This document shows, piece after piece, positions 6,152 through 57,007 of a stretch of 64,000 bases of DNA. Position 1 is the stretch's first letter. The number at the start of each line of letters is the position of its first letter. The translations under genes were made by a program, and so were the position numbers. The notes below the pieces were generated by a model. That model was not told where the DNA came from. It ran no database searches and worked only from the letters and a program-made list of their open reading frames with translations. Source of the DNA: an uncultured Candidatus Rokubacteria bacterium (lineage in GTDB: Bacteria > Methylomirabilota > Methylomirabilia > Rokubacteriales > CSP1-6); NCBI GenBank assembly GCA_963762145.1, contig CAVXJS010000021.1, forward strand, positions 480,001-544,000. The letters run 5' to 3'.

Positions 6152-7177
6152 TTACACGCCCAGCTCGGCCGCCGTCGTCTCGATCTGGCTCCAGGTCTGA
6201 TCCTCGATCGGGATCCCCTGCCGGCGGCGCTCCGCCTCGAGCCGCGCTTCCGGCTCGCCGGGGATCAGGATCTCGGTGGCGCCCTGCGCGAGCGGCGCCG
6301 ACTTCACCCACCCGAAGAGCGAGGCCACCTGGCGGTGGAACTCGGGCAGCGGCAGGAACCGCTCCACGTCGAGGCAGATCATGAGCGTGCCGTTGGCGAA
6401 GACGCCCGGCGGCGGCCCCGCGGGGCCGGTGCCGGAGAGGATGCCGCCCAGGATCTCGACCGCGAGCGAGAGCCCGTAACCCTTGTGCTCGCCCGAGGTG
6501 AGCAGCGCGCCGGGCGGGGTGCCGTAGAAGATCTCGGGATCCGTCTGCGGCCGGCCGTCGGCGTCCACGAACCAGCCGGGAGGGGCCGGCTGCTTGCGGT
6601 TGCGCTTCACCCGCAGCTTGCCCTCGGCCACCACGCTGGTGGCGAAGTCGAGCACCATCGCGGGGCCGCCCGCGCCCGGGATGCCGACCGCGTGCGGGTT
6701 CGTGCCGAGGCGCCGCGCGGCGCCGCCCCACGGCGCCACGTTGAGCCCGTGCACGCAGTTGGCCCAGAGCATGCCCACCAGGCCGGCGCCGGCGGCCATC
6801 TCCGCGTAGTCCGCGAGCCGTCCGACGTGGCTGGTGCGCGAGGTCGATGCCGCGCTCAGGCCGCCCGCCTTCGCCTTCGCGATCGCCATCTCCATCGCGC
6901 GGCGGCCGACCACCTGGCCGAAGCCCCCGCCGCCGTCGAGCCGCACGAGGGCGGGCGTCTCCGCGGTGACCGTCACCGGGGATCGCGGATCGACCTCCTT
7001 CTTCTTCACCGACTCCCAGTACTGCGGGATGCGTATGACGCCGTGCGAGTCGTGGCCGCGCAGGTTCGCGCGCACGAGCAGCGCGGCGATCCACGCCGCG
7101 TCGCCGGCCGGCGCGCCCATCGCGGTGAAGATGCGGGTGGCCTTCGCTTCGAGCTGGGCGGGTTCGATGGTCGGCAT
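6152..7177 (-). CDS. Ldh_2-family (malate/L-lactate/hydroxycarboxylate) dehydrogenase
   Basis: GHDSHG, SHVGRL, LGTNP, LDFATS, HKGYGL, ILIPGEPE. Confidence 0.92.
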   Translation of the reverse strand: MPTIEPAQLEAKATRIFTAMGAPAGDAAWIAALLVRANLRGHDSHGVIRIPQYWESVKKKEVDPRSPVTVTAETPALVRLDGGGGFGQVVGRRAMEMAIAKAKAGGLSAASTSRTSHVGRLADYAEMAAGAGLVGMLWANCVHGLNVAPWGGAARRLGTNPHAVGIPGAGGPAMVLDFATSVVAEGKLRVKRNRKQPAPPGWFVDADGRPQTDPEIFYGTPPGALLTSGEHKGYGLSLAVEILGGILSGTGPAGPPPGVFANGTLMICLDVERFLPLPEFHRQVASLFGWVKSAPLAQGATEILIPGEPEARLEAERRRQGIPIEDQTWSQIETTAAELGV

Positions 7178-7198
7178 GTCGGCTACAATACTCCAGCG

Positions 7199-7540
7199 AT
7201 GGAACCGACGAAAGCCGAGCGCGAGTTCTTCGATCCGGCGCCCCTGCCGTGGCGGCCCGCTCCCGGATTTGCCGCCGGCGTCTGGGAGCAGATCATCAGC
7301 GGCGGAGTCGACGAGGGCGTGACCACGCGCCTGCTCCGCTTCGACCCCGGTTCCGGCAACGACCGGGTCGTGACCCACGACTTCTGGGAGGAGATCTACA
7401 TCATCTCGGGCACGCTCGAGTGCGGCGGCCGCCCCTATCCGGCGGGCTCGGTCGCGGTGCGGCCGCCCGGCATGCCGCACGGGCCGTTTCACTCCGCCGC
7501 GGGGTGCGTGAGCTTCGAGGTCCGCTACCGGGCGCGCTGA
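7199..7540 (+). CDS. Cupin (ChrR-like) protein
   Basis: THDFWEEIYIISG...RPPGMPHGPF. Confidence 0.85.
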   Translation: MEPTKAEREFFDPAPLPWRPAPGFAAGVWEQIISGGVDEGVTTRLLRFDPGSGNDRVVTHDFWEEIYIISGTLECGGRPYPAGSVAVRPPGMPHGPFHSAAGCVSFEVRYRAR

Positions 7541-8517
7541 TGGCGGCCCCCCCGGCCTGGCGCTCGGCCGATCTGCCCATCCGGGTCGGCATCTCCTCCT
7601 GCCTGCTGGGCGAGGAGGTGCGCTACGACGGCGGCCACCAGAAGGACGCCTACATCACCGGCGTGCTCGCGCGCCACTTCACGTGGGTGCCGGTGTGCCC
7701 GGAGCTGGAGGTCGGCATGGGCGTGCCGCGCGAGCCGATCCGGCTGGTTGGCGACGCGGCCTCTCCGCGCCTGCTGGGCGTCGCGAGCGGGACCGACCAC
7801 ACCGACCGCATGGACGCGTTCGCGCGCCGGCGCGTGGAGGAGCTGCGGCGGCGCGAGCTCAGCGGCTACATCCTGAAGCGCGGCTCGCCCTCCTGCGGCC
7901 TCGAGCGGGTGAAGCTCTACACAGGGGACGGGCCGCCCGTGCGCACCGGCACCGGGCTCTTCGCGCGCGGGCTCACCGACGCGTTGCCGCTCCTGCCGGT
8001 GGAGGAGGAAGGCCGGCTCAACGACGCGCACCTGCGCGACAACTTCATCACCCGGGTCTTCGCCTACCGGCGCCTCGCCGCGCTGCGGGCCGCCGAGCCG
8101 CGCCCGGCCGCGGTGGTGGAGTTCCACACCGCGCACAAGTACCTGCTCCTCGCGCACAGCCCCGCGGCCTACGCGCGGCTGGGCCACCTAGTCGCGGAGG
8201 TTCCCCGCCTCGCGCGCGCGGGCTGGCTCGACGGGTACGCCGCGGGCTTCATGGCCGCCCTCGCCACGCGGGCGACGATCAAGAAGCACGTCAACGTCCT
8301 GCAGCACATCGTGGGCTTCTTCAAGACGCGGCTCGCGGCCGCCGAGAAGCGCGAGCTGCTCGGGATCATCGGCGACTACGCGGCCGGGCTCGTCCCGCTG
8401 GTGGTGCCCATCACGCTGATCAACCACCACGTCGCGCGCTTCGACGTGGCCTACGTCCGCGACCAGATCTACCTGCGGCCGCACCCGAAGGAGCTCATGC
8501 TCCGCAACCACGTATGA
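7540..8517 (+). CDS. DUF523 (TudS-like [4Fe-4S] thiouracil desulfidase) plus DUF1722 fusion
   Basis: GISSCLLGEEVRYDGG, PVCPE, SPSCG; FHTAHKYLLLAHS; ends PHPKELMLRNHV. Confidence 0.9.
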   Translation: MAAPPAWRSADLPIRVGISSCLLGEEVRYDGGHQKDAYITGVLARHFTWVPVCPELEVGMGVPREPIRLVGDAASPRLLGVASGTDHTDRMDAFARRRVEELRRRELSGYILKRGSPSCGLERVKLYTGDGPPVRTGTGLFARGLTDALPLLPVEEEGRLNDAHLRDNFITRVFAYRRLAALRAAEPRPAAVVEFHTAHKYLLLAHSPAAYARLGHLVAEVPRLARAGWLDGYAAGFMAALATRATIKKHVNVLQHIVGFFKTRLAAAEKRELLGIIGDYAAGLVPLVVPITLINHHVARFDVAYVRDQIYLRPHPKELMLRNHV

Positions 8518-8689
8518 CGGGCTGTGGGTCTGACGGGTTGTGGCAGCGCGCCTCCCGCCGTATTCTGGACGGGCGCGACCATGACGCGATCCCGGCGGAG
8601 CTTCCGTCATTCCTAGCAGCCTCCACGCGCGGGCGAGCGCCGAGCGTCGAGCGGGGTCCGGCGAAGGCATCCCCTGGATCCACGTCGGC

Positions 8690-11686
8690 GTGTTCCTCGC
8701 GGGCACGATCCTGGTCGTGCTGTTCACCGCGCACCAGCTCGACACCGAGCGGGAAACCGCCCTCACCCACTGGAAGAGCCGCCTCGCCACCATCACCGTC
8801 GACCGGACCCGTCTCGTCTCGAGCTGGCTCGCGGCCCGCCGCGCCGACGCGGAGGTGCTCGCCGCCTTCCCGGCGGTGCGCGCGCAGCTCGCGGGTCAGA
8901 CGCGGGACGACGAGGCGCTCGCGCGGCACCTGAGCCGCGTCGCCGCGGCCTACGGCTACGTGGGCATCGTGGTCGCGGACGCGAACGGCCACACTGCGGC
9001 CCGGTCCGCGTCCGACCCCGGGCTCGCGGCCGTGCTGCTGGAGCACGCCGCGGAGCAGGCCGCGCAGGTGGCCCGGAGCCGGAAGCCGCGCTTCGAGCTC
9101 GCGGGCGTGGGCGCGGGGCGGCTGCTCGTGGTCACGGTGCCCGTCTTCTCCGACGGCGCGCCCGCCGGCCTCGACGGCGACACGCGGCCGCTCCTCGGCG
9201 TGGTCACGCTCGGCGCCCGGCCGGAGGCCGGCCTCTACCCGCTCCTCGCCGACGACGCGGACCCGACGCACACCAGCGAGACGCTCCTGATCGACCTCGA
9301 GAGCGAGCCGCCCGCCTTTCTCTCGCCGCTGCGCCACCCCCTCCCGGCCGACGCCGAGACGCCGAAGCGCTCCCTCGCCGCCCTGGCCGGGCTCGCCCAG
9401 GCCGGCGCGCAGGGCCACGAGGCGGTCGGCGAGATGGTGGACTATCGCGGCGTGCCGGTGGTGGCCGCGGTGCGCCGGGTCCCGCCCACCGGCTGGTCGC
9501 TCGCGCTCGAGGTGAACCGCGACGAGGCGCTCGCCGAGTTCCAGCGCTCGAGGCGGCTGGCCGGCGCGGCGGCCGCCTTCCTGCTCCTGGCCCTGGCCGG
9601 CTTCCTGATCGCGCTCCACCGCGAGCAGCAGCGCGCGCGGCTGCTCCAGCAGCAGATGCGCCAGGCCCGCGCGATGACGAGCCTGCAGAGCTACGCGGAC
9701 AAGATCGTGGCGAGCGTGCCCGCCGGCCTGCTCCTGCTCTCGGAAGACCTGCACGTCCTCTCGGCCAACCGCGCCTTCCTCGAGTCGTTCCGGCTCCGCG
9801 AGGAGGAAGTGCTGGGGCGCGACCTCCAGCAGCTCGTGCGGGCGGAGCGGCTCATGCGCGGCGCCCGCGAGGCGCTCGCCACCGGCGCGACCCAGCAGGC
9901 CGGCCTCTACGAGCTCTACGTGTACGCGCGCCGCGACACCAAGCCCGCGCGCATCACCATGAGCGCGATTCACCTGGCCGACGACGAGCCGCCGCGCCTG
10001 CTCCTGATCGTCGAGGACCTCACCGAGGAGGAGCGGCTGCAGGCGGCCCACCAGGAGTCGGAGCAGCGCTACCGCGATCTCATCCAGGGCCTCGACGCCA
10101 TCGTGTGGGAAGCCGACGCGCACACCCTCACCTTCTCCTTCGTCAGCCGCCGCGCCGAGACCGTCCTCGGCTACCCGGTGGAGCGCTGGCTGCGCGAGCC
10201 CGACTTCTGGGCCCGCCGCATCCACCCGGAGGACCGCGACACGGTCATGCAGACCTACCGCACCGCGATCGCGGAGGCGCGGGACCACGAGTTCGAGTAC
10301 CGGGCGATCGCGGCGGACGGCCGCGAGGTGTGGCTGCGCGACATCGTCCACGTGGTACGCGACCCGGACGGCCGGGCCGCCACCCTGCGCGGCCTCACGG
10401 TGGACCTCACCGAGCTGAAGCGCTCGGAGCGCGCGCTGCACACGAGCGAGGAGCAGCTCCGGCAGGCGCAGAAGATGGACGCGGTGGGCAAGCTCGCGGG
10501 CGGAATCGCCCACGACTTCAACAACCTGCTGATGGTCATCCGCGGCGACAGCGACCTCATGCTGCGCCGCCTCGCGCCCGGCCACTCCCTGCGCCGCAAC
10601 GCGGAGGGCATCCGCGACGCGGCCGACCAGGCGGCCACCCTCACGCGGCAGCTCCTCGCGTTCAGCCGCAAGCAGGTCATGGCCCCGCGCCTCGTGGATC
10701 TCAACGGCATCGTGGCCAGCATCCACGCCATGCTCCAGCGGCTCCTCGGCGAGACGATCAACCTCGTCACGGTGACCGCGCCGGACCTGGGCGGGGTCAA
10801 GGCCGATCCCGGCCAGATGGAGCAGATGATCCTGAACCTCTGCGTGAACGCGCGCGACGCCATGCCCGACGGGGGCCGGCTCACCGTGCGCACCGCCAAC
10901 GTGGACCTGGACGAGGCGGCCGCCGCGCGCCTGAGCGACGCGCGGCCCGGCCCCTACGTCCTGCTCGAGGTCGGCGATACCGGGGTGGGCATGGATGCGG
11001 AGACCCGCTCGCACCTGTTCGAGCCGTTCTTCACCACCAAGGAGCAGGGCAAGGGGACCGGGCTCGGGCTCTCGACCGTGTACGGCACCGTGAAGCAGAG
11101 TGGCGGCCACATCTCGGTGGAGACCGAGCCGGGCCGCGGCTCCACGTTCACGGTCTATCTCCCCCGCGTGGCGGCTCAGGTCGGGCCGCCGGAGCGGCCC
11201 GCCGCGAACGCCCCCGCCTCGCGGAGCGGCGGCGCGCCCGAGGCGACCCTCACCCCGGGCCGCGGCGAGACCATCCTGCTGGTGGAGGACGCTCAGCGGG
11301 TACGGGCGGTGGTCCGGGAGATCCTCGAGATGAGCGGCTACGTCGTGCTCGAGGCGCGCCAGGGGGCGGAGGCCCTCGAGATCAGCAACCGGCACGCGGG
11401 ATCCATTCACCTGCTCGTCACCGACGTGGTCATGCCGCAGATGAGCGGGAGCGAGCTGGCGCAGCGCCTGGCCACCTTGCGCCCGGAGATGAAGGTGCTG
11501 TATATGTCCGGCTACACGGATGACGCCATCGTCAGGCACGGCGTGCTGGCCTCGGGCATCGCGTTTCTCTCCAAGCCGTTCACCCCGGACGCGCTCGCGC
11601 TCAAGGTGCGCGAGGTCCTCGACGGCGTGGCCGACCGGACGACCGCCGGCCCCTCCGTCACCCCCGGCGGCCGCACCCGCCGCTAG
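8690..11686 (+). CDS. Membrane hybrid sensor histidine kinase (Cache-like, PAS, PAS, HisKA, HATPase, REC); true start may be ATG 8581 with an indel
   Basis: Two TMs; AHDFNNLL; NARDAM; FFTTKEQGKGTGLGL; REC LLVED...TDVVMP...KP. Confidence 0.93.
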   Translation: MFLAGTILVVLFTAHQLDTERETALTHWKSRLATITVDRTRLVSSWLAARRADAEVLAAFPAVRAQLAGQTRDDEALARHLSRVAAAYGYVGIVVADANGHTAARSASDPGLAAVLLEHAAEQAAQVARSRKPRFELAGVGAGRLLVVTVPVFSDGAPAGLDGDTRPLLGVVTLGARPEAGLYPLLADDADPTHTSETLLIDLESEPPAFLSPLRHPLPADAETPKRSLAALAGLAQAGAQGHEAVGEMVDYRGVPVVAAVRRVPPTGWSLALEVNRDEALAEFQRSRRLAGAAAAFLLLALAGFLIALHREQQRARLLQQQMRQARAMTSLQSYADKIVASVPAGLLLLSEDLHVLSANRAFLESFRLREEEVLGRDLQQLVRAERLMRGAREALATGATQQAGLYELYVYARRDTKPARITMSAIHLADDEPPRLLLIVEDLTEEERLQAAHQESEQRYRDLIQGLDAIVWEADAHTLTFSFVSRRAETVLGYPVERWLREPDFWARRIHPEDRDTVMQTYRTAIAEARDHEFEYRAIAADGREVWLRDIVHVVRDPDGRAATLRGLTVDLTELKRSERALHTSEEQLRQAQKMDAVGKLAGGIAHDFNNLLMVIRGDSDLMLRRLAPGHSLRRNAEGIRDAADQAATLTRQLLAFSRKQVMAPRLVDLNGIVASIHAMLQRLLGETINLVTVTAPDLGGVKADPGQMEQMILNLCVNARDAMPDGGRLTVRTANVDLDEAAAARLSDARPGPYVLLEVGDTGVGMDAETRSHLFEPFFTTKEQGKGTGLGLSTVYGTVKQSGGHISVETEPGRGSTFTVYLPRVAAQVGPPERPAANAPASRSGGAPEATLTPGRGETILLVEDAQRVRAVVREILEMSGYVVLEARQGAEALEISNRHAGSIHLLVTDVVMPQMSGSELAQRLATLRPEMKVLYMSGYTDDAIVRHGVLASGIAFLSKPFTPDALALKVREVLDGVADRTTAGPSVTPGGRTRR

Positions 11687-11713
11687 CGCCGCCGCGCCCC
11701 GGCCGCTTCCGTC

Positions 11714-12124
11714 ATGATCGATCGCCCCATTCGCGTGCTGGTGGCCAAGGTCGGCCTCGACGGACACGACCGCGGGGCGAAGATCGTGGCCCGCTGCCTT
11801 CGCGACGCGGGCATGGAGGTCGTCTACACCGGACTGCACCGCACGCCCGAGGAAGTGGTGGCGGCCGCGGTGCAGGAGGACGTCGACGTGCTCGGCATCA
11901 GCATCCTCTCGGGCGCCCACCTGACGCTCTTCCCCCGCGTGCTCGAGCTGATGCGCGGCGCGCGCGCCGGGGACATCCTGCTGGTGGCGGGCGGCGTCAT
12001 TCCGGACGAGGACGTGCCCGTGCTGCGCGACATGGGCGTGGCCGAGGTGATCCTGCAGGACACGCCGCCCGACACGATCGTCGCCCGCATCCGCGACCTG
12101 GTGGCGGCCCGGCCGACCTGCTGA
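11714..12124 (+). CDS. hcmB: B12-binding small subunit of 2-hydroxyisobutyryl-CoA mutase
   Basis: [10 protein letters not shown] base-off/His-on motif; GLHRTPEE and LQDTPP as recalled for HcmB; operon context. Confidence 0.85.
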
Positions 12125-12128
12125 TCCC

Positions 12129-13589
12129 ATGACCGAGCCGGATGAGGCCGCGCTCGGCCGGACGCGCGGCGTGGACCTGACGGTCTGGCCGCCGCGCTAC
12201 GACGCGACCTACCGGCCCGCCCCGTCCGCCGAGCACTGGCTGCCCGAGATCGAGTGCGCGGATCCGGCCGCGCGCGACGCGCTGATCTTCGCCAAGCTGA
12301 CCCACCAGGTGCGCTACGCGTGGGAGCGGAGCCCGTTCTACCGGCGCCGGTGGCAGGAGGCGGGCGTGTCGCCCGAGACCCTCAAGAGCCTCGACGACCT
12401 CGCGCGCTTCCCGGTGGTGCAGAAGGCGGAGCTGCGCGCCGCGCAGGCGGCCGCGCCGCCCTTCGGCGACTACCTCTGCATCGAGCCCGCGCAGGTGGCG
12501 CGCATCCACGGGACCAGCGGCACCACCGGGCGGCCCACCGTGTTCGGCATCGGAGCGGACGACTGGGACCGGATCGGCGAGGCCCACGCGCGCATCCTCT
12601 GGGGAGCCGGCATCCGGCCGGGCGACCGCATCCTGATCTGCTCGTTCTTCAGCCTCTATCTGGGCTCGTGGGGCGCCCTCGCGGGCGGGGAGCGGCTCGG
12701 CGCCACCGTGTTCCCCTTCGGGGCGGGCGCGCAGGGCCAGACGCTCGGGGCCGTGCAGTGGGCGCGCGATCTCCGCCCCTCCGCCTTCTACGGCACGCCG
12801 TCCTACGCGCTGCACTTCGCGGAGACCGCCCGCCGCGAGGGCATCGACCCCGCGGGCCTGGGCTTCCGCATCCTCTTCTTCTCCGGCGAGCCCGGCGCGG
12901 GGATCCCCGCGACCCGGGCGCTGATCGAGCAGACCTTCGGCGGCATCTGCGTGGACATGGGCAGCATGGCCGAGATGTCGCCCTGGATGACCAACGGCGA
13001 GTGCCGCCATCGGACCGGCATGCACCTCTGGCAGGATCTCGTCTACACGCAGGTCTGCGATCCGGAGACGTTCCGGCCCCTGCCCTACGGCGCCGAGGGC
13101 ACCCCCGTGTACACTCACCTCGAGCGGACGTCGCAGCCGATGATCCGGCTGGTCTCGGGCGACCGCGCGCGGTGGGTGGACGACCCGTGCCCCTGCGGGC
13201 GGACCTACCCGCGCCTGCCGCACGGCCTCTACGGCCGCTTCGACGACATGATCATCGTGCGCGGCGAGAACATCTACCCGAGCGCCATCGAGGACACGCT
13301 GCGCGCCATCGACGGCTTCGGCGGCGAGTTCCGGGTGATCGTCTCGCGCCGCGAGGCCATGGACGAGCTGCTGGTGCGCGCCGAGTACACCGCGGCCCAC
13401 GGCGGGCAGGTCGAGCCGCTGCGCGCCCTGATGCGCGAGCGCCTGCGGGCGCGCCTGGGCGTGCACCCGGTGGTGGATCTCGTCCCCGAGGGCACGCTCC
13501 TCCGCACCGAGTTCAAAGCCCGCCGCGTGATCGACGACCGCGATCTCTACCACCAGGGACTTCTACCCGGAGACACTCGCCATGTTTGA
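12129..13589 (+). CDS. hcl: 2-hydroxyisobutyrate-CoA ligase (PaaK-like adenylate-forming enzyme)
   Basis: HGTSGTTGRP, SLYLGSWG, GSMAEMSP, THLERTSQPMIRL, FKARRVID; lies between the mutase subunits. Confidence 0.82.
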   Translation: MTEPDEAALGRTRGVDLTVWPPRYDATYRPAPSAEHWLPEIECADPAARDALIFAKLTHQVRYAWERSPFYRRRWQEAGVSPETLKSLDDLARFPVVQKAELRAAQAAAPPFGDYLCIEPAQVARIHGTSGTTGRPTVFGIGADDWDRIGEAHARILWGAGIRPGDRILICSFFSLYLGSWGALAGGERLGATVFPFGAGAQGQTLGAVQWARDLRPSAFYGTPSYALHFAETARREGIDPAGLGFRILFFSGEPGAGIPATRALIEQTFGGICVDMGSMAEMSPWMTNGECRHRTGMHLWQDLVYTQVCDPETFRPLPYGAEGTPVYTHLERTSQPMIRLVSGDRARWVDDPCPCGRTYPRLPHGLYGRFDDMIIVRGENIYPSAIEDTLRAIDGFGGEFRVIVSRREAMDELLVRAEYTAAHGGQVEPLRALMRERLRARLGVHPVVDLVPEGTLLRTEFKARRVIDDRDLYHQGLLPGDTRHV

Positions 13590-15264
13590 TCCCGAAGCGC
13601 TCAAGCGCCTGGCCGCCGAGAAGGCGGCCTGGGACGCCAAGGAGCTCGCCGAGTTCCTCGCCCGCCAGCCGGAGGCGCGCACCGACTATCGCACCGGCTC
13701 CGGCATGCCGGTGCAGCGCCTGTACACGCCGGCGGACATCGCGGACGCGCCCGCCGACAACATCGGCCTGCCCGGCCAGTTCCCCTACACGCGCGGGCCG
13801 TATCCCACGATGTACCGCGGGCGCAACTGGACGATGCGCCAAATCGCGGGCTTCGGCACCGGGGCCGACACCAACGGGCGCTTTCGCTACCTGATCGAGC
13901 AGGGGCAGACCGGGCTCAGCGTGGACTTCGACATGCCGACCCTGATGGGCTACGACTCCGACGATCCGCGCTCGCTCGGCGAGGTCGGCCGCGAGGGGGT
14001 CGCCATCGACACCCTCGACGACATGGAGGCGCTCTTCGCGGACATCGACCTCGAGCGCATCTCGGTCTCGATGACGATCAACCCGAGCGCGTGGATCCTC
14101 CTCGCGATGTACGTGGCGCTCGCGGAGTCGCGCGGCTTCGACCTGAACAAGCTGTCCGGCACCGTGCAGGCCGACATCCTGAAGGAGTACATCGCGCAGA
14201 AGGAGTGGATCTTCCCGATCCGCCCCTCGATGCGCGTGATGCGCGACATGATCGTGTGGAGCGCGCGGAATCTCGCCCGCTACAACCCCATCAACATCAG
14301 CGGCTATCACATCTCCGAAGCGGGGGCGACCTCGGTGCAGGAGCTCGCCTTCACGATGGCGAACGCGATCGCCTACGTGGAGGAGGTGACCCGGGCGGGG
14401 GTGCCGGTCGACGAGTTCGCGCCGCGCCTGGCCTTCTACTTCGTAGCCCAGGCCGACTTCTTCGAGGAGGTCGCCAAGTTCCGCGCGGCCCGGCGCATCT
14501 ACGCGCGGCTCATGAAGGACCGCTTCGGCGCGACGAAGGCCGAGTCGATGCGCCTGCGCTTCCACTGCCAGACCGCGGCGGCCACCCTCACCAAGGCGCA
14601 GCCGCTCAACAACATCATCCGCACCGCCTTCCAGGCGCTGTCCGCGGTGCTGGGCGGGGCCCAGTCGCTCCACACCAACGGCATGGACGAGGCCTACGCG
14701 ATCCCCTCCGAGGAGGCGATGAAGATCGCGCTGCGGACCCAGCAGATCATCGCGATGGAGACGCGCGTGCCGCAGGTGGTGGATCCGCTCGGCGGCTCCT
14801 ACTACGTCGAGGCGCTGACCAACCGCGTCGAGGCCGAGGTCCTCCGCATCCTGGCCAAGGTGGACGCGATGGGCGGCACCATCAAGGCCATCGAGGAGGG
14901 CTTCTTCCAGCACGAGATCGCCGACTCCGCCTACGACTTCGCCCGGCGCAAGGCGGCGGGCGAGCAGCCAGTCATAGGCGTCAATACACTGGTCGAACCG
15001 TCCGAGCCGCCGCCCCTGCCCATCCACAAGGTGGACCCCGCGGTGGAGGCGCGCCAGATCGGCCGGCTGAAGGACGTGCGGCGGCGGCGCGACCAGGCCC
15101 TCGTGGATCGCCTGATGGACCGGCTCGAGCGCGAGGCGCGCGAGCCCGCGACCAACATCATGCCGGTGACGATCGAGCTCGTGAAGGCGCGCGCCACGCT
15201 GGGCGAGATCGTGGCGCGGCTCCGCCACGTCTGGGGCGCCTACATCGAGCGGCCGGTGTTCTGA
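13582..15264 (+). CDS. hcmA: 2-hydroxyisobutyryl-CoA mutase large subunit
   Basis: MCM-family barrel with MRQIAGFG (Ile88) and SVDFDMPT (Asp115) instead of the MCM RQYAGF motif. Confidence 0.88.
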   Translation: MFDPEALKRLAAEKAAWDAKELAEFLARQPEARTDYRTGSGMPVQRLYTPADIADAPADNIGLPGQFPYTRGPYPTMYRGRNWTMRQIAGFGTGADTNGRFRYLIEQGQTGLSVDFDMPTLMGYDSDDPRSLGEVGREGVAIDTLDDMEALFADIDLERISVSMTINPSAWILLAMYVALAESRGFDLNKLSGTVQADILKEYIAQKEWIFPIRPSMRVMRDMIVWSARNLARYNPINISGYHISEAGATSVQELAFTMANAIAYVEEVTRAGVPVDEFAPRLAFYFVAQADFFEEVAKFRAARRIYARLMKDRFGATKAESMRLRFHCQTAAATLTKAQPLNNIIRTAFQALSAVLGGAQSLHTNGMDEAYAIPSEEAMKIALRTQQIIAMETRVPQVVDPLGGSYYVEALTNRVEAEVLRILAKVDAMGGTIKAIEEGFFQHEIADSAYDFARRKAAGEQPVIGVNTLVEPSEPPPLPIHKVDPAVEARQIGRLKDVRRRRDQALVDRLMDRLEREAREPATNIMPVTIELVKARATLGEIVARLRHVWGAYIERPVF

Positions 15265-16409
15265 TGCCGCCCCGGCCCTTCCGCATCGAGGTCCCCGAGG
15301 GCACCCTCGCGGACCTGCGCGAGCGCCTCGCCCGCGCGCGCTGGCCCGACCAGGCGCCCGGCGCGGAGTGGGCGTTCGGCACGAGCCTCGCGTACATGAA
15401 GGAGCTCGTCGCGTACTGGACGGACCGCTACGACTGGCGCGCGCACGAGGCGCGGCTCAACGGGTTCCGCCAGTTCACGGCCCCGGTGGGAGGCATCGAT
15501 CTCCACTTCATCCACGAGGAGGGCCGCGGGCCGGACCCGCTCCCGCTGCTGCTCTCCCACGGCTGGCCCGGCTCGGTCTGGGAGTTCTACAAGATCCTGC
15601 CCATGCTCACCGATCCCGCGCGCTTCGGCGGCGACCCGGCCGACGCGTTCACGGTGATCGCGCCCTCGCTGCCCGGCTACGGGTTCTCGTTCGCGCCCGG
15701 CCAGCCGCGCTTCGGCATCGCGGAGATCGCCGACCTCTTCGCGTCGCTCATGACCGACACGCTCGGCTACCGCCGCTTCGCCGCGCAGGGCGGCGACTGG
15801 GGCGGCTTCATCACGTCGAAGCTGGGCGCCGCGTATCCCGACCGGCTCGCGGCCATCCACGTGAACCTGCTGTCGCTGCGCCGCGACATCAAGCCGCCGG
15901 CCCAGCCCTCGCCGGAGGAGAAGCAGTACCTCGAGGATCTCGGTCGGTGGCAGCGCGAGGAGACGGGCTACCAGTGGATCCAGGGCACCCGGCCCCAGAC
16001 GCTGGCCTTCGGCCTGAGCGATTCCCCGGTGGGCCTCGCGGCCTGGATCGTGGAGAAGTTCCGGACCTGGAGCGACTGCGACGGCGACGTCGAGCGCCGC
16101 TTCACCAAGGACGAGCTGCTCACCAACGTGATGATCTACTGGGTGACCGGCAGCATCAACGCCTCCTTCTGGCCCTACTACGCGCGCTTCCACTCGCCGT
16201 GGCCCATCGCGGACGGCCAGCGCATCGAGGTCCCGACCGGCTACGCCGCGTTCCCGAAGGAGATCGTGCGGCCGCCGCGGGCCTGGGCCGAGCGCATGTA
16301 CAACATCCGGCGCTGGACGGTGATGCCGGCGGGCGGCCACTTCGCGGCGATGGAGGAGCCGGCCGCGCTGGCGCAGGAGCTCCGCGCCTTCTTCCGGGAG
16401 TCGCGCTGA
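15264..16409 (+). CDS. Epoxide hydrolase (microsomal type, EHN plus alpha/beta)
   Basis: YDWRAHEARLN, HGWPGS, QGGDWG, GGHFAAME; TGATG overlap with hcmA. Confidence 0.93.
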   Translation: MPPRPFRIEVPEGTLADLRERLARARWPDQAPGAEWAFGTSLAYMKELVAYWTDRYDWRAHEARLNGFRQFTAPVGGIDLHFIHEEGRGPDPLPLLLSHGWPGSVWEFYKILPMLTDPARFGGDPADAFTVIAPSLPGYGFSFAPGQPRFGIAEIADLFASLMTDTLGYRRFAAQGGDWGGFITSKLGAAYPDRLAAIHVNLLSLRRDIKPPAQPSPEEKQYLEDLGRWQREETGYQWIQGTRPQTLAFGLSDSPVGLAAWIVEKFRTWSDCDGDVERRFTKDELLTNVMIYWVTGSINASFWPYYARFHSPWPIADGQRIEVPTGYAAFPKEIVRPPRAWAERMYNIRRWTVMPAGGHFAAMEEPAALAQELRAFFRESR

Positions 16410-17254
16410 CGCGCCGCCGGCGGCGGGCCACCACCGTCGTCCTGGCGGCTCTCCTGGCCGCCACCGTCGGGTTCGTCGTGTGGGCGGTCGGCATCGAGCC
16501 CGGCCGGGTGGTGCTGCGGGAGACGCCGGTTTCGATCGCGCGCTGGCCCGCCGACCTCGGGCCCCTCCGGATCGCCGCGCTCGCCGATCTGCACACCGGG
16601 TCGCCCCACATCACGGTGGCCAAGCTGCGCGAGATCGTGGCGTCCGTGAACGCGGCGCAGCCGGACCTGATCGTGCTGCTCGGGGACTACGTCATCCACG
16701 GGGTGGCCGGCGGCCGGTTCGTGGAGATCGAGCAGACCGCGGCGGCGCTGCGCGACCTGAAGGCGCCGCTCGGCGTCTTCGCGGTGCTCGGCAATCACGA
16801 CTGGTGGTACGACGGGGCCCGCTGCGTCCGCGCGCTCGAGGCGGTGGGCATCCACGTCCTGGAAGACGCCGCTGCCGAGGTGACGGTGCGCGGCCACTCC
16901 CTCTGGATCGCGGGGGTCAGCGACCTCCGGACCCGCCCGGCCGCGATCGGCCGCGCGCTCGCGCCGGTGCCGGCGGGCGCGTCGGTGATCGTCCTCACCC
17001 ACAACCCGGATGTCTTCGCCCGCATGCCCGCGCGCGTGCTGCTCACCCTGGCCGGGCACACCCACGGCGGCCAGGTGAACCTGCCCGTGCTCGGGCGCCT
17101 CATCGTGCCGTCGCACTTCGGGGATCGCTACGCGATCGGCCACATCCACGAGGACGACCGCGACCTCTTCGTCTCGCCCGGCATCGGCACCAGCATCGTC
17201 CCGGTGCGGTTCCGCGTGCCGCCCGAGGTCTCGATGCTCACGGTGGGGCGGTGA
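16406..17254 (+). CDS. Metallophosphoesterase (YkuE/YaeI-like), N-terminal TM; start uncertain
   Basis: ADLH, LGDY, GNHD, HNPD, GHTHGGQ. Confidence 0.88.
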   Translation: MTRRRRRATTVVLAALLAATVGFVVWAVGIEPGRVVLRETPVSIARWPADLGPLRIAALADLHTGSPHITVAKLREIVASVNAAQPDLIVLLGDYVIHGVAGGRFVEIEQTAAALRDLKAPLGVFAVLGNHDWWYDGARCVRALEAVGIHVLEDAAAEVTVRGHSLWIAGVSDLRTRPAAIGRALAPVPAGASVIVLTHNPDVFARMPARVLLTLAGHTHGGQVNLPVLGRLIVPSHFGDRYAIGHIHEDDRDLFVSPGIGTSIVPVRFRVPPEVSMLTVGR

Positions 17255-19329
17255 AGGCCCCCACCCGGAGTCAGCGCACGCGTCTGCTCGCGAGCGCGGC
17301 GCCCGCGCTCGGCGTCGCGCTCGTGCTCACCGCCGCCTCGCTCTGGGGGTTCCTCGCCGCCACCCGCGCGCGGGTCGGCGACCTGCTCTTCAACGCGCGC
17401 CCGGCCCAGACCGCGCGCTCCACCGTGATCGTGGGCATCGACGAGAAGAGCTACCAGGCGCTGCTCGGGCGCCACGGCCCGCTCTCGGCCTGGCCCCGCA
17501 CGCTCTACGCCGACGCCCTCGACGCCCTCCGGCCCGCCGCCCCGCGCGTGGTAGCCTTCGCGATCTTCTTCGACGCGCAGCGGCCCGAGGACGGCGCGCT
17601 CGCCGAGGCGATGCGTCGCGCCGGCAACGTGGTCGTGCCCGTGGTGGCGCAGGGGGCGAGGGCCTTCGATCCGCGCCCGGGCGTCGCCCAGGAGTTCGAG
17701 ACCTTCGTCCGGCCGGCCGCCACCGTGCGGAGCGCGGCGGTGGACGAGGGGCTGGCCAACATCACCACCGGGCGGGACAGCGTGGTCCGGCGCCTTCCCC
17801 TCCTCCTCCGCGCCGGCGGCGAGGAGCTGCCGAGCCTGGCCCTCACCATCGTGGCGCGCTTCACGCGCCGGCCGGTCGTCCTGGACGCGCACGCGGAGCC
17901 CGGCCTCCTCCACGCGGCGGGCCGGACGATTCCGGTCGCGGAGCACGACACGATGCTGATCGATTTTCTCGGCCCGCCGTCCGAGCCGGGGGGCGCCGGG
18001 CCCTTCCCGATTCTCTCGTTCGTGGACGTGCTCGAAGGCCGCTTCGATCCCGCGCTGGTCCGCGACCGCATCGTGCTGCTGGGCCCGACCATCCGGGGCG
18101 TGGACGAGCACGCTACTCCGACCACCGGCGACACGCGGATGTGGGGCGTCGAGATCCTGGGCAACGCGGTCGAGACGGTGCTGTATCAGCGCTTCCTCTC
18201 GCCCGTCGGGCCCGGCACCACCGCCATCCTGATCGGGGGCATGGCCCTGCTCGCCGCGCTCGTGGTCGCGACGTGGCGGCCCCTGCCCGCCGGGCTGGCG
18301 GTCGCGGCCGGGCTCGCCCTCTACGGGACCGCGGCGGCCCTGCTCTTCGAGCGCGGCGTCGTGCTGGACCTGGTCTACCCGCCGGCCGCGCTGCTGATCA
18401 GCTTCGCGGCCGCGCTCTCCTCGCGCCTCGTTCTGGAGCAGGCGGAGCAGCGAATAGTCCGGGAGGCGATGGGCCGCTATCTCTCGCCCGCGGTGAGCCA
18501 GTGGGTCCTCGCCGATCCGGACCGTTTGCGGCTCGGCGGCGAGACGCGAGAGATGACGGTGCTCTTCAGCGACCTCCGTCAGTTCACCACGCTCGCCCAC
18601 GCGCTGCCTCCCGCGACGCTGGTGGCCCTGCTCAACACCTACCGCACCGGGATGGCGGACGTGGTCTTCCGCCACGACGGCGTGCTCGCCCAGTACGCGG
18701 GCGACGCCATCGAGGCCTTCTGGAACGCGCCGATGGACCAGGCCGACCACGCGCGGCGCGCCTGTCTGACCGCGCTCGACATGGTGGCGGCGCTCGCGAC
18801 GCTGCGCCCGCAGTTCGAGGCGCGGGGCTGGGCCCATCTCGACCTGGGCGTGGGGATCAACACCGGGCAGATGGTGGTGGGCAACATGGGCTCGAAGGAT
18901 CGCCTGATCTACACCGCGGTCGGCGATCCGGTGAACGTGGCCGCGCGGCTCGAGGGGCTCTCCAAGGAATACGGCGTGCGGATCGTGGTGGGCGAGGCCA
19001 CCGTCGCCGCCGAGCCGCGGGCCCTCGTCTACCGCATCCTCGACCGGGTCGCGGTCAAGGGGCGTGGCGAGCCGCTCACCTGCTACGAGGTGCTCGCGCG
19101 CGCGGGCGCGCTCGATCCCGCGGGCGAGCGCCGGCTCGCGCGCTACCACGAGGCCCTCGCGCTCTACCGCGCGCGGCGATGGGCCGAGGCGATCCGCCTG
19201 CTCGACGAGCTCGGCGCCGAGGCGCCCACCGACGGGCCCATCGCGCTCTACCAGCGGCGCGCGCGCGCCCTGCTCACGGATCCGCCCCCCGCCGACTGGG
19301 ACGGCGTCTTCGTCGCGGAGTCGAAGTAG
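17251..19329 (+). CDS. CHASE2-domain class III adenylate/guanylate cyclase with C-terminal TPR-like helix
   Basis: IVGIDEKS, WPR, DSVVRR, GVEI; three TMs; SDLRQFT, GDA, VNVAARLEG, VKGR, WDGVF. Confidence 0.92.
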   Translation: MKAPTRSQRTRLLASAAPALGVALVLTAASLWGFLAATRARVGDLLFNARPAQTARSTVIVGIDEKSYQALLGRHGPLSAWPRTLYADALDALRPAAPRVVAFAIFFDAQRPEDGALAEAMRRAGNVVVPVVAQGARAFDPRPGVAQEFETFVRPAATVRSAAVDEGLANITTGRDSVVRRLPLLLRAGGEELPSLALTIVARFTRRPVVLDAHAEPGLLHAAGRTIPVAEHDTMLIDFLGPPSEPGGAGPFPILSFVDVLEGRFDPALVRDRIVLLGPTIRGVDEHATPTTGDTRMWGVEILGNAVETVLYQRFLSPVGPGTTAILIGGMALLAALVVATWRPLPAGLAVAAGLALYGTAAALLFERGVVLDLVYPPAALLISFAAALSSRLVLEQAEQRIVREAMGRYLSPAVSQWVLADPDRLRLGGETREMTVLFSDLRQFTTLAHALPPATLVALLNTYRTGMADVVFRHDGVLAQYAGDAIEAFWNAPMDQADHARRACLTALDMVAALATLRPQFEARGWAHLDLGVGINTGQMVVGNMGSKDRLIYTAVGDPVNVAARLEGLSKEYGVRIVVGEATVAAEPRALVYRILDRVAVKGRGEPLTCYEVLARAGALDPAGERRLARYHEALALYRARRWAEAIRLLDELGAEAPTDGPIALYQRRARALLTDPPPADWDGVFVAESK

Positions 19330-19433
19330 ACGGTTGGAAGGATGTGCCGCGCCGGTAAGCCGTGCCGGTACGCTTGATCCGCAGGGCATCCGTCCTGCGC
19401 CCAGGACACCAGCGTTTCCAGGCTCTTCCGGTC

Positions 19434-19449
19434 CGGCACGGCGTTTGCC
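19434..19449 (+). promoter_or_regulatory. Sigma54 (-24/-12) promoter
   Basis: CGGCACGGCGTTTGCC: GG-N10-GC with the CAC and TTGC cores, just upstream of an AGGAGG RBS. Confidence 0.65.
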
Positions 19450-19476
19450 CCTATCCAGGGCAGGAGGTGAACTGCC

Positions 19477-19632
19477 ATGGACGAGCGACCGATGGAACCG
19501 TGTCCGCGATGCGGCGGCGACTGCCGGGCGGTCCGGCAGTTCACCCGATGGGGCCGCGCCATCACGGTGCTTTCGTGCCGGGATTGTCAGTACACGCGCC
19601 ACGCCTTGGTAACCGCGGGAGCGCAGCAGTGA
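19477..19632 (+). CDS. 51-aa zinc-ribbon microprotein (absent from the ORF track)
   Basis: AGGAGGTGA RBS; MDERPMEPCPRCGGDCRAVRQFTRWGRAITVLSCRDCQYTRHALVTAGAQQ with two CxxC motifs. Confidence 0.75.
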   Translation: MDERPMEPCPRCGGDCRAVRQFTRWGRAITVLSCRDCQYTRHALVTAGAQQ

Positions 19633-19826
19633 TCAACGTGCTCCTGCTGTTCCTCACGACCGGGGTCGCGCTGATGGTGGCCGTCACGTTGATCGTTGGA
19701 ATAGCGTGGCTCGCGATCGCGATTCCGGTCGTGCTCATCAGCGGCGCCGGCGCCGGTCTGGTCGCCTTGAATCGACGATGGGCCCGCGCACACGTCGGGA
19801 GGCCCCACGTCGGGAGGACCCGGTGA
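19629..19826 (+). CDS. 65-aa membrane protein
   Basis: GTGA overlap with the previous stop; about 45 hydrophobic residues followed by an Arg-rich tail. Confidence 0.7.
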   Translation: MINVLLLFLTTGVALMVAVTLIVGIAWLAIAIPVVLISGAGAGLVALNRRWARAHVGRPHVGRTR

Positions 19827-19874
19827 CGGAGCGCGCCGCGGGCGCCCGGCCGATTCCGTGTATCATCTCGCTCC

Positions 19875-20792
19875 ATGAAGCTCGGATTCGCGCTCCCGAC
19901 CGCGGGTGACTGGGCCACGCCGGAGAACCAGATTCGCGTCGCGCGCCAGGCCGAGGCGCTCGGCTACCATTCGCTCTGGGTCTTCCAGCGTCTGCTCTAC
20001 GCGCTCGAGCCCAAGAACGAGTACCCGCCGGTGCCGGGCAAGACGTGGCCCAAGCCGTTCGAGCGCGTCTTCGATCCGATCGTCACCCTCGCCTACGTGG
20101 CCGCGGCCACCCAGCGCATCCGCCTCGGCACCAGCGTGCTGATCATGCCGTTCTACCAGCCGGTCGTCCTCGCCAAGCAGCTCGCCACGCTGGACGTGCT
20201 CTCGGGCGGCCGCCTGGACGTGGGGCTCGGCCTCGGCTGGTCGCAGGACGAGTACGAGGCGGTCGGTGTGCCCTTCAAGCACCGGGGCCGCCGTGCCGAC
20301 GAGTTCCTCCGCTGCCTCGACGCGATCTGGAGCCAGGACGTGACCGAGTTCCACGGCGAGTTCTACCACGTGCCGCGCTCGCGGGTGGAGCCGAAGCCGG
20401 TGCAGAAGCCGCGCCCGCCCATCACCATCGGCGGCTACGGCTCGACGGTCGTGAAGCGCGCGGTGGAGCTGGGCGACGGCTTCAACGGGGGCAACGTACC
20501 GATGGCCAGCGTGGCCCCGCTGGTGAAGGAAGTGAAGGACGCGGCGGCCGCGCTCGGGAAGGACCCGGGCTCGCTCCACATTGTCTGCCGCGGCACGTAC
20601 CGCGTCCACGACAGCCCCCAGGGCTCGGACCGCCGCCCGCTCTGGGGAACGCTCGACGAGATCCGCGAGGACATCGGCCGCTATGCGGAGGCCGGCCTGA
20701 CCGAGCTGTTCCTGGAGGGCAATTTCACGCCCGGCGGCGCCTCGCTCGAGCAGGCGCTCGAGGTGATGGCGCGCCTGGCGCCCGGCCGCTGA
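19875..20792 (+). CDS. LLM-class flavin/F420-dependent oxidoreductase
   Basis: DPIVTLAYVAAAT, LGTSVLI, LDVLSGGR, PKPVQKPRPPI. Confidence 0.9.
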   Translation: MKLGFALPTAGDWATPENQIRVARQAEALGYHSLWVFQRLLYALEPKNEYPPVPGKTWPKPFERVFDPIVTLAYVAAATQRIRLGTSVLIMPFYQPVVLAKQLATLDVLSGGRLDVGLGLGWSQDEYEAVGVPFKHRGRRADEFLRCLDAIWSQDVTEFHGEFYHVPRSRVEPKPVQKPRPPITIGGYGSTVVKRAVELGDGFNGGNVPMASVAPLVKEVKDAAAALGKDPGSLHIVCRGTYRVHDSPQGSDRRPLWGTLDEIREDIGRYAEAGLTELFLEGNFTPGGASLEQALEVMARLAPGR

Positions 20793-20904
20793 CCTTGGCG
20801 AGCGAACGCTGGCGGACCCAGGTGACCGCAAGTGTCAGACTCCATGTCAGAATCTGTGAACCGCCCCTCGATGCCCACTGGGTGCCTGAAGGCAAAGCGC
20901 AGTT

Positions 20905-20949
20905 ATTTCATTAGGTTGTCCCGGGCATGGGGGCGGCACTTTTCTTGCT
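20905..20949 (+). promoter_or_regulatory. Sigma54 promoter with upstream IHF-like site
   Basis: CGGCACTTTTCTTGCT (GG 20935, GC 20947); ATTTCATTAGGTTG at 20905-20918. Confidence 0.7.
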
Positions 20950-20962
20950 CAACCTGCCTGAC

Positions 20963-21778
20963 ATGGACGACAGCCTCCCGAGCATCTTGTGTGTCGATGA
21001 CGACGTGGACGTCCTGGAACTGCTCAAGGAGTATTTTACCGAGCAGGGATTCGTCGTCCTGACCGCCACCAACGGGGTCGAGGCTTTCCTCCAGGTCAAG
21101 CGGTGGCAGCCCAAGGCTGTGATCCTCGACCTGTTCATGCCCCGCCTGGGCGGAATCGGCGCGCTGGGTCGGATCAAGGCGCTCAACCCCGACGTGGTCG
21201 TGATCCTGGTCAGCGGCATGGGCAATGCGCTCGAGCTGGTCACGGAGGCCGGCCTGAGCGTGGCCGGCGCCTTCACCAAGCCGCTCAACCTGATGCAGGT
21301 GTCCGACACGCTGGCCCGGTCCGGTGTGGTGGCCCCGGCGACCCTGGTCGCGGCGGCGGCGGCGGGTGAGCCCGTGCAGGCCAAGCGGCCGGTGCGCGCG
21401 CGTGTGCTCGTGGTGGACGACGAGCTCGAGTTCCGCAAGGTGCTCGCCGAGTACCTCGAGGACCGCGGCTTCGACGTCATCGAGGCGCAGGACGGCGAGG
21501 AGGCGCTCCTCCGGGTGCCGGACTTCCACCCGCACATCGTGCTGATGGACGTGATGATGGCGGGCATGGGCGGCGTCGAGGCCCTGAAGCGGATCAAGAC
21601 CACCGCGCCCGAGACGTGCGTGATCATGGTCACCGCGGTGGAGGACATCGACTCCGCGCGCGGAGCCCTGGCGCTCGGCGCGTCCGACTACGTGACGAAG
21701 CCGTTCAGCTTCCAGTATCTCGACTCGGTGCTCGAGGTCCACATGCTGATGGACCACATCGACCCGAAGTCGAGCTAG
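20963..21778 (+). CDS. Tandem REC-REC response regulator without an output domain
   Basis: VDDD...LDLFMP...TKP and VDDE...MDVMM...TKP; ATG 20963 preferred because ATG 20927 lies upstream of the sigma54 motif. Confidence 0.88.
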   Translation: MDDSLPSILCVDDDVDVLELLKEYFTEQGFVVLTATNGVEAFLQVKRWQPKAVILDLFMPRLGGIGALGRIKALNPDVVVILVSGMGNALELVTEAGLSVAGAFTKPLNLMQVSDTLARSGVVAPATLVAAAAAGEPVQAKRPVRARVLVVDDELEFRKVLAEYLEDRGFDVIEAQDGEEALLRVPDFHPHIVLMDVMMAGMGGVEALKRIKTTAPETCVIMVTAVEDIDSARGALALGASDYVTKPFSFQYLDSVLEVHMLMDHIDPKSS

Positions 21779-26989: not shown

Positions 26990-27156
26990 GCGCGGGCGGC
27001 GGACTCGGCCGCGCGGCCGCGTCCTGCTCGCGGCCCGAGACGTACGCGCGCGGCAACGCTCTTGCGCTGTCCCGGGCCGCGGGTATACCGTCATCTGCGC
27101 ATGCCGGCCCGCGTATGCCGTCCGCGGAATACTCGCCGCTTCGAGAGGAGTCAACG

Positions 27157-28288
27157 ATGACCGAAGGCAGCCAGCTCATCCGGGGTCTGGAGGGGGTGGT
27201 CGCCGCCGAGACGCGTCTCTGCGACCTGGACGGCCGGAACGGACGCCTCGCCTACGGCGGCTACGACATCGACGAGCTGGCGCGACAGGCCACCTTCGAG
27301 GACGTGGCCTACCTGCTCTGGCACGACGAGCTGCCCGCCCGGGGGCCCCGCGAGAAGTTCCAGGCCGAGCTGGCGGCCGCGCGGCCCATTCCCGACGCGC
27401 TGATCCGCGCTTTCGCGCTCATGCCGCGAGACACCGATCCCATGCGGGTGCTCCAGGCCGCCGTCGCGATCCTCGGCATGCACGATCCGGACGCCACCGA
27501 CAACTCGCGCGCGGCCAACCTGCGCAAGTCGGTGCGGCCTGACCAGCCAGTTCGCGACCGCCATCTGCGCGCATCATCGCGTGCGGAACGGGCAGGCGCC
27601 GGTGCCGCCGTCGAAAGAGCTCTCCCACGCGGCCAACTTCCTGTACATGCTCACCGGCGAGGCCCCGAGCCCGGTCACCACCCGGGCGGTGGACGCGAGC
27701 CTCACCCTCTACGCCGAGCACGAGCTGAACGCGTCCACCTTCACGACGCGCGTCATCGCGGCCACCCTCTCGGACATGCACTCCGCGGTGGCGGGCGGGG
27801 TGGGCGCGCTGAAGGGCACGCTCCACGGCGGCGCGGGCGAGGCGGTGATGCGCACCCTTCTGGAAGTCGGCTCGCTCGACAACGTGGACAGCTTCGTGGA
27901 CCGCTCGATGAGCGAGAAGCGGCGGCTGATGGGCTTCGGGCACCGCGTCTACACCGCGGGCGACCCGCGCGCGACGATCCTGAAGGGCCTCGCCGAGGCG
28001 GCGTGCCGCCAGTCGGGCCAGGCGCTCTGGTACGACCTGGCGGTCGCGCTCCACGCCAAGGTGCAGGCCACCAAGCGCCTCATTCCCAACGTGGACTTCT
28101 ACTCGGCGCCGCTCTTCTACTCGATCGGGATCCCGGTGGACCTCTTCACCCCGGTCATCGCGGCGTCCCGCATCGCGGGCTGGACCGCCAACCTGCTCGA
28201 GCAGTACGATGACAACCGCCTGATCCGCCCCCGCGCCGACTACAAGGGCCACCCCCGCCGCCCCTTCGTCCCCCTCGACAAGCGATAA
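27157..28288 (+). CDS. Citrate/2-methylcitrate synthase (one +1 indel near 27537)
   Basis: GLEGVV, AEHELNAST, LHGGA, GFGHRVY, NVDFYS, RLIRP. Confidence 0.88.
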
Positions 28289-28301
28289 GATAGAAGCCGC
28301 C

Positions 28302-30239: not shown

Positions 30240-30242
30240 CTC

Positions 30243-31342: not shown

Positions 31343-31378
31343 CCGCGGGGCGCCCGCCCGCGCTGACCCCGCGCTGAA

Positions 31379-55711: not shown

Positions 55712-55718
55712 CAACTAC

Positions 55719-55754
55719 ACCCTCTCCCCTCCGGGGAGAGGGAAGGGTGAGGGG
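55719..55754. repeat. BoxC-like repeat
   Basis: ACCCTCTCCCCTCCGGGGAGAGGGAAGGGTGAGGGG ending 3 nt before the next ATG. Confidence 0.88.
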
Positions 55755-55757
55755 CAT

Positions 55758-56932: not shown

Positions 56933-56951
56933 GGGCAGTCCCCACCTCATT

Positions 56952-56988
56952 CCCCTTCTCCCCTCAGGGGAGAGGGCAGGGTGAGGGG
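56952..56988. repeat. BoxC-like repeat
   Basis: CCCTTCTCCCCTCAGGGGAGAGGGCAGGGTGAGGGG. Confidence 0.88.
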
Positions 56989-57007
56989 TGGTCTGACGAG
57001 AGGAGCG

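Follow-up and report, generated by a model that had tools for sequence, protein, structure and literature searches.

Assimilation of 2-hydroxyisobutyric acid (2-HIBA) by an acid-CoA ligase (HCL) and a 2-hydroxyisobutyryl-CoA mutase (HCM; subunits HcmA and HcmB) is well known from bacteria that break down fuel additives and is represented by structurally characterised enzymes of the betaproteobacterium Aquincola tertiaricarbonis L108, i.e., HcmAB (PDB entry 4R3U) and HCL (6HDW and related entries). Published work covers the enzymes themselves, the proximity of their genes to hcl in numerous strains that are not degraders, and the inference that 2-HIBA has a natural source (PMC7176365, PMC2847961, PMC13188929). 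The canonical cluster arrangement found below in four plasmid loci has likewise been described, with a gene for the MeaH/MeaB chaperone as a usual but accessory member (PMC7176365). A role in 2-HIBA catabolism is supported for the mutases of Methylibium petroleiphilum PM1 and Mycolicibacterium sp. ELW1 (PMC13188929, PMC7176365), and in the latter strain the module serves the catabolism of isobutylene via the epoxide and the diol to 2-HIBA (PMC13188929). Isomerisation of 2-hydroxyisobutyryl-CoA is likewise catalysed by RcmAB of Kyrpidia tusciae, the genes of which are located close to hcl, but this enzyme is described as (R)-specific and only distantly related to HcmAB (PMC7176365). Here we describe an hcmB-hcl-hcmA operon in a stretch of 64,000 nucleotides (hereafter called the window) of contig CAVXJS010000021.1 from an uncultured Candidatus Rokubacteria bacterium, a Methylomirabilota-like host. 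Its three genes are orthologous to those of the Aquincola enzymes, their products keep the presumed specificity residues, and together they very probably constitute a module for 2-HIBA assimilation via Hcl and HcmAB.

The window has a G+C content of approximately 72%, and the three genes are located on its plus strand. The first gene, hcmB (11714-12124), encodes the B12-binding small subunit of HCM, a protein of 136 amino acids containing the sequence LDGHDRG (DxHxxG motif). It is followed, after a spacing of 4 nt, by hcl (12129-13589) coding for a 2-hydroxyisobutyrate-CoA ligase of 486 amino acids, a PaaK-like member of the ANL enzymes. The end of hcl overlaps by 8 nt with hcmA (13582-15264), the product of which is the substrate-binding large subunit of HCM (560 amino acids). 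The codon at position 13843 (ATC) specifies Ile88 of HcmA, located in MRQIAGF, and the codon at position 13924 (GAC) specifies Asp115 in SVDFDMP; the ligase contains the sequence SLYLGSW with Tyr177. These two residues, the ligase sequence and the order small subunit-ligase-large subunit had been listed in a first-pass annotation of this DNA, and each was found at its place in the open reading frames (ORFs) and their translations.

Sequence searches of all PDB chains assigned the three proteins to the HCM system. HcmA matched best to 4r3u_A, the large subunit of HCM, with 836 bits over residues 3-560 and without gaps, as compared to 455 bits for human methylmalonyl-CoA mutase (MCM), 401-415 bits for other bacterial MCMs and 262 bits for IcmF. 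The ligase scored 584 bits against 6hdw_A (2-hydroxyisobutyryl-CoA synthetase) versus 246 bits against PaaK. HcmB, which carries a Pfam B12-binding domain, matched the HCM small subunit 4r3u_C with 187 bits (runner-up, 143 bits), and was 60-82% identical to the products of small-subunit genes in 15 of the HCM-type loci defined below. Ile88 and Asp115 of the window HcmA align with residues 101 and 128 of chain 4r3u_A; given their spacing of 27 residues and an offset of 11 residues due to a tag, these positions agree with Ile90 and Asp117 as reported for HcmA. Likewise, Tyr177 and Ser252 of the ligase align with residues 175 and 250 of chain 6hdw_A (spacing, 75 residues; 11-residue tag) and thus correspond to Tyr164 and Ser239 of HCL, which have been described as unique pocket residues of that enzyme (PMC8388817). 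The window proteins are hence like those of Aquincola in the split subunits, the Ile/Asp pair and the ligase Tyr/Ser pair. Identity to the PM1 orthologues, which are close to those of Aquincola, amounts to approximately 66-68% for HcmA, 67% for HcmB and 54% for Hcl.

Public records, in which MCM and PaaK names are used, would suggest a split MCM of propionate or succinate metabolism located beside a phenylacetate-CoA ligase, and the Pfam model MM_CoA_mutase and the NCBIfam models acid_CoA_mut_N/C indeed match the window mutase. However, HcmA reached a score of only 587 with the MCM equivalog NF006944 (cut-off, 876), and the ligase only 275 with the PaaK equivalog TIGR02155 (cut-off, 646). Moreover, Ile88 and Gln206 of HcmA occupy alignment columns which hold Tyr and Arg in E. 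coli ScpA; we take the corresponding Tyr89 and Arg207 of P. shermanii MCM to be the residues that bind the substrate carboxylate. With the PDB score against HcmA being nearly double that against any MCM, scores and residues leave a negligible probability for the combination of MCM and PaaK, which appears effectively refuted. Rather, the PDB scores, the equivalog scores below cut-off, the residue signature, the position in the tree (see below) and the ligase pocket residues agree in supporting the genes as orthologues of those for HcmB, HCL and HcmA, in line with the identity proposed in the first-pass annotation.

The residue signature and the gene neighbourhood were compared in 84 related loci, 80 of which were detected by scanning a single genome for each GTDB species while four came from plasmid records (Methylibium petroleiphilum PM1, Mycobacterium sp. 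ELW1, Xanthobacter autotrophicus Py2 and Agrobacterium deltaense). The large subunits of 17 loci were at least 65% identical to the window HcmA (HCM-type loci) and showed Ile/Asp (16 loci) or Leu/Asp (one locus, L074) at positions 88/115. The other 67 loci, at 52-59% identity, all had Phe/Ala at these positions, and Ile-or-Leu/Asp was present in none of them. Eighteen out of 196 aligned family members carry both Ile and Asp, and all but one of these 18 fall in the HCM clade; the Ile-or-Leu/Asp signature exceeds chance. The Phe/Ala-type large subunits, found in Solirubrobacterales and others, share the fold with the window HcmA and form the nearest group in the tree (SH-like approximate likelihood ratio test [SH-aLRT] support of 80). 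They differ from it in the residues at 88/115 and in lacking an hcl neighbour (0 of 67 loci). Our label 'ICM-like' for this group assumes that Phe80 is a signature of isobutyryl-CoA mutase (ICM).

A copy of hcl adjoins the mutase genes in 16 of the 17 HCM-type loci (15 intact, one frameshifted), the remaining locus (L005) being truncated at the contig end. Both pocket residues of HCL, Tyr and Ser, are conserved in the ligase of the window and in those encoded by each of the 15 intact hcl genes. In the frameshifted case, a betaproteobacterial metagenome-assembled genome (MAG; L037, 7400-9100), two frameshifts interrupt hcl whereas the reading frames of hcmB, meaB and hcmA are undamaged, which probably reflects a long-read indel error. 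HCM is not the only mutase with a PaaK-like ligase gene next to it, as shown by a second locus on the Xanthobacter autotrophicus Py2 plasmid (L086, 9433-14871; Xaut_5040-5045). There, a split acyl-CoA mutase with Leu/Leu at positions 88/115 is encoded along with MeaB, a PaaK-like ligase and a TetR regulator; presumably, this is a pivalyl-CoA mutase (PCM) cluster.

Phylogenetic analysis was done with the window HcmA, the 17 HCM-type loci, 12 of the 67 Phe/Ala loci, 40 representative sequences, E. coli ScpA and Xaut_5043, which we assume to be a PCM. The representatives were the best of 109 full-coverage sequences from a library built at 50% identity (41 of 150 were dropped for incomplete coverage); in this library, which served solely as outgroup, the HCM clade is collapsed to fragmentary members. 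All 18 HCM rows grouped in one clade with SH-aLRT support of 100, among them the mutases of PM1 and ELW1. The first-pass annotation had named a phylogeny as a check, and in the present tree, which holds no rows labelled as RcmA, IcmA or PCM, the window HcmA lies inside the HCM clade. Here it belongs to a subclade of six rows from Methylomirabilota/Rokuibacteriota (SH-aLRT, 99). The nearest genomes are Methylomirabilia/Rokuibacteriota MAGs with 78-84% identity.

A search of a collection of 5.8 billion proteins yielded at least 120 clusters, the listed ones all being at least 80% identical to the window HcmA. Among the matches listed, Ile/Asp was present in 118 of the 120 best clusters, and those of the 120 with an organism name belong to Methylomirabilota/Rokubacteria. 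P0053 and P0085 deviate from this pattern and are mosaic proteins with an ICM-like part (Phe/Ala) comprising residues 1 to approximately 125 and a remainder approximately 95% identical to the window HcmA; they arose either by chimeric assembly or by a natural exchange of the segment that determines specificity. An MCM-type name was given to 46 of the 120 best clusters and the name '2-hydroxyisobutanoyl-CoA mutase large subunit' (JGI) to eight, while 66 had none. RefSeq labels the PM1 and ELW1 orthologues as 'methylmalonyl-CoA mutase family protein' and 'AMP-binding protein', and in an older record of Xanthobacter Py2 the ligase is called 'Phenylacetate--CoA ligase'. Such generic names are explained by the lack of specific NCBIfam models for HcmA, HcmB and HCL and by scores far below cut-off for the MCM and PaaK equivalogs; in RefSeq, genes of this kind accordingly appear under MCM-family, B12-binding or AMP-binding names. 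The warning that the operon is easily mis-annotated as MCM plus PaaK was thus justified, and misleading names are passed on to hundreds of soil metagenome proteins.

Based on these assignments, Hcl is predicted to convert free 2-HIBA, ATP and CoA to 2-hydroxyisobutyryl-CoA, which the adenosylcobalamin-dependent HcmAB would then transform to 3-hydroxybutyryl-CoA by rearrangement of the carbon skeleton. As Asp115 is present, the product would most likely be the (S)-enantiomer. Enzymes encoded elsewhere would channel it into beta-oxidation/acetoacetyl-CoA metabolism, and chaperones encoded outside the window would take care of B12 supply and repair. The pathway would further presuppose a physiological source of 2-HIBA; the natural source proposed in the first-pass annotation has already been suggested in print for other strains (PMC7176365).

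Several points weigh against this functional assignment. The activity of the Methylomirabilota members is a prediction from sequence, and the role of Ile90 (Tyr in MCM, Phe in ICM) and Asp117 of HcmA as specificity residues is an assumption on our part. The tree was obtained by a quick IQ-TREE search (LG+G4) of 72 subsampled rows with SH-aLRT as its only support measure. When queries from PM1, ELW1, the related locus L002 and E. coli were used in tblastn searches of the 64 kb (E <= 1e-3), no match was obtained for MeaB/ArgK, adenosyltransferase, the GntR regulator, 3-hydroxybutyryl-CoA dehydrogenase or thiolase. An Rfam search of the whole window returned 0 matches and thus no cobalamin riboswitch, and a scan of positions 7000-21000 detected no promoter-like sites and three terminator-like sites as compared to 2.1 expected, hence neither a clear promoter nor a clear terminator. 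As to the catabolism of tertiary C4 compounds proposed in the first-pass annotation, no genes for its upstream steps (tert-butanol monooxygenase, MpdBC-type dehydrogenases) were seen in the window.

Orthologues of HCM and HCL might also act on another physiological substrate, for instance a related tertiary 2-hydroxy acid such as 2-hydroxy-2-methylbutyrate, or in the reverse direction starting from 3-hydroxybutyryl-CoA, for example to provide 2-hydroxyisobutyryl-CoA as donor for lysine 2-hydroxyisobutyrylation. The mutase reaction is described as reversible (PMC7176365, PMC2847961), the window contains no pathway genes, upstream or downstream, that fix the direction, and the host is not known as a degrader of xenobiotics. 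Yet the acid-CoA ligase is a dedicated one and shares the small polar pocket of HCL, which suggests that free 2-HIBA is taken up and activated, and all studied members are catabolic; a different substrate or direction is considered unlikely. Even less probable is a function in acetone degradation, in which a thiamine pyrophosphate (TPP)-dependent lyase joins acetone and formyl-CoA to form 2-hydroxyisobutyryl-CoA, as proposed for Desulfococcus biacutus. Such a route exists in sulfate reducers (PMC7888143, PMC7176365), and a gene for a TPP enzyme is located in the window at positions 25316-26989. However, this gene lies 10 kb away from the operon, and its product is benzoylformate-decarboxylase-like (282 bits), for which reason it was rejected as a candidate 2-hydroxyacyl-CoA lyase. 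Moreover, the acetone route is reported to use an RcmAB-like mutase and no HCL (PMC7176365), whereas hcl is part of the operon in the window.

The 2-HIBA module of the window was further compared with the plasmid-borne clusters, in all four of which the gene order is hcmB-hcl-meaB-hcmA. The agreement in gene order with Aquincola stated in the first-pass annotation therefore holds for the sequence hcmB, hcl, hcmA but not for the cluster as a whole, since meaB is present between hcl and hcmA in the known plasmid clusters and the window has neither meaB nor the GntR regulator gene. Thirteen of the 17 HCM-type loci possess meaB, whereas L001, L003 and L009, which share the phylum of the window, lack it. 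A divergent GntR regulator gene is found upstream in PM1, Py2 and Agrobacterium, while ELW1 has a gene for an FCD-domain regulator downstream. All four plasmid loci contain an adenosyltransferase gene, located downstream of hcmA in three of them and upstream in ELW1. Three of these loci carry a gamma-carbonic-anhydrase-like gene, and 3-hydroxybutyryl-CoA dehydrogenase is encoded in PM1 and ELW1.

On the PM1 plasmid (NC_008826.1, MPE_RS22120-22170), hcmB, hcl and hcmA are located on one strand as in the window. In addition to the intervening meaB and the divergent GntR regulator gene, however, the PM1 cluster encodes two adenosyltransferases, a TPP protein, the gamma-carbonic-anhydrase-like protein and 3-hydroxybutyryl-CoA dehydrogenase, none of which is encoded in the window; conversely, the window has an epoxide hydrolase gene unlike the PM1 cluster. 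The same module is present in ibc cluster 2 of ELW1 (ibcM-N-O-P, pELW1-1), the HcmA of which is 67% identical to that of the window. Strain ELW1 carries meaB and B12 biosynthesis genes, and its epoxide hydrolase IbcK differs from that of the window, being a shorter alpha/beta hydrolase with its gene in another cluster.

The epoxide hydrolase gene of the window (15264-16409, plus strand) was overlooked in the first-pass annotation, which had correctly given hcmB, hcl and hcmA as operon content. It is translationally coupled to hcmA, with its ATG overlapping the hcmA stop codon by one base (TGATG), and possibly represents a fourth operon gene. The encoded protein of 381 amino acids is of the microsomal (EHN) type (Pfam EHN, 129 bits, plus Abhydrolase_1), scored 330 bits against PDB entry 5f4z, and contains the motifs SHGWPGS (HGWP), QGGDWGG (GGDWG nucleophile) and GGHFAA (C-terminal His). 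Orthology to the isobutylene epoxide hydrolase of ELW1 was considered and rejected, as the match to 9c2g amounted to only 40 bits. An identical junction is present in L001, and in L009 the gene is located 5 kb downstream; it is absent in the other 15 HCM-type loci.

In L001 and L009, the epoxide hydrolase gene is directly followed, after 17 nt and 12 nt, respectively, by a gene for an F420-type luciferase-like (LLM) oxidoreductase. The corresponding gene of the window (19875-20792, plus strand; TIGR03619, 250 bits with a cut-off of 167) is separated from the epoxide hydrolase gene by inserted genes for a metallophosphoesterase and a CHASE2-domain adenylate cyclase (16478-19329). A second cyclase-domain gene is found at 21-716. 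On the other side of the operon, a gene for a hybrid PAS histidine kinase/response regulator, identified by its Pfam domains (8690-11686, plus strand; 998 amino acids), precedes hcmB with a gap of 27 nt. The same synteny is seen in L001 (62% identity) and L009 (58%), and the product is possibly a regulator of the operon or merely that of a syntenic neighbour.

It is conceivable, though unlikely, that in one sublineage of Methylomirabilota the module lost its in-cluster chaperone and regulator genes and gained a coupled EHN epoxide hydrolase gene, ancestrally followed by the LLM gene. The gene products could then jointly convert a 1,1-disubstituted epoxide, either isobutylene oxide or a similar one of biogenic origin, via the diol and 2-HIBA to 3-hydroxybutyryl-CoA. 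The coupling of the epoxide hydrolase gene, which rests on only three close relatives, could be mere synteny. If the proposal were true, the abundant uncultured Rokubacteria of soil would consume tertiary-carbon compounds, those derived from biogenic isobutene or others, and thus act as a sink, with an epoxide hydrolase unrelated to the mycobacterial IbcK.

At least five genes of the window are split between two frames (27184-28288, 30243-31377, 31379-32534, 33314-34352 and 55758-56932), with the halves of the respective Pfam profiles located in different frames. They code for a citrate-synthase-like protein, PrpF, two acyl-CoA dehydrogenases and a Meth_synt_2 protein, and are either assembly indel errors or pseudogenes. 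Because of these frameshifts, sequence errors are possible in the window; the four ORFs of hcmB, hcl, hcmA and the epoxide hydrolase gene are intact and full-length when compared with solved structures. Genes for the citrate-synthase-like protein, an aconitase (28302-30239) and PrpF are arranged in a row (27000-31400) and look like a methylcitrate-cycle block for propionate (prpC-acnD-prpF type). Another row on the plus strand (53740-58509) comprises genes for a CoA-transferase of family III, an enoyl-CoA hydratase, a split acyl-CoA dehydrogenase, a GNAT protein and an HMG-CoA-lyase-like protein; this acyl-CoA catabolic cluster has no evident link to the hcm operon.

Literature searches combining the phylum name with hydroxyisobutyrate found, among the papers inspected, none tying Methylomirabilota/Rokubacteria to HCM. 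What is new here is modest, namely the apparently widespread presence of HCM in Methylomirabilota/Rokubacteria, a cluster without meaB or the GntR regulator gene, and the lineage-specific coupling with an epoxide hydrolase gene. The understanding of how the enzyme works is unchanged by the find. The window and its relatives add natural diversity of high G+C content to the available Hcm scaffolds, and more diversity of this kind is called for in engineering work (PMC11599936). The conservation of Ile/Asp in nearly all of the best clusters, together with the affiliation of the named ones, suggests that 2-HIBA catabolism may be a common trait of Methylomirabilota/Rokubacteria, an abundant uncultured soil phylum. 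Such wide occurrence would strengthen the published suggestion that natural sources of 2-HIBA exist.

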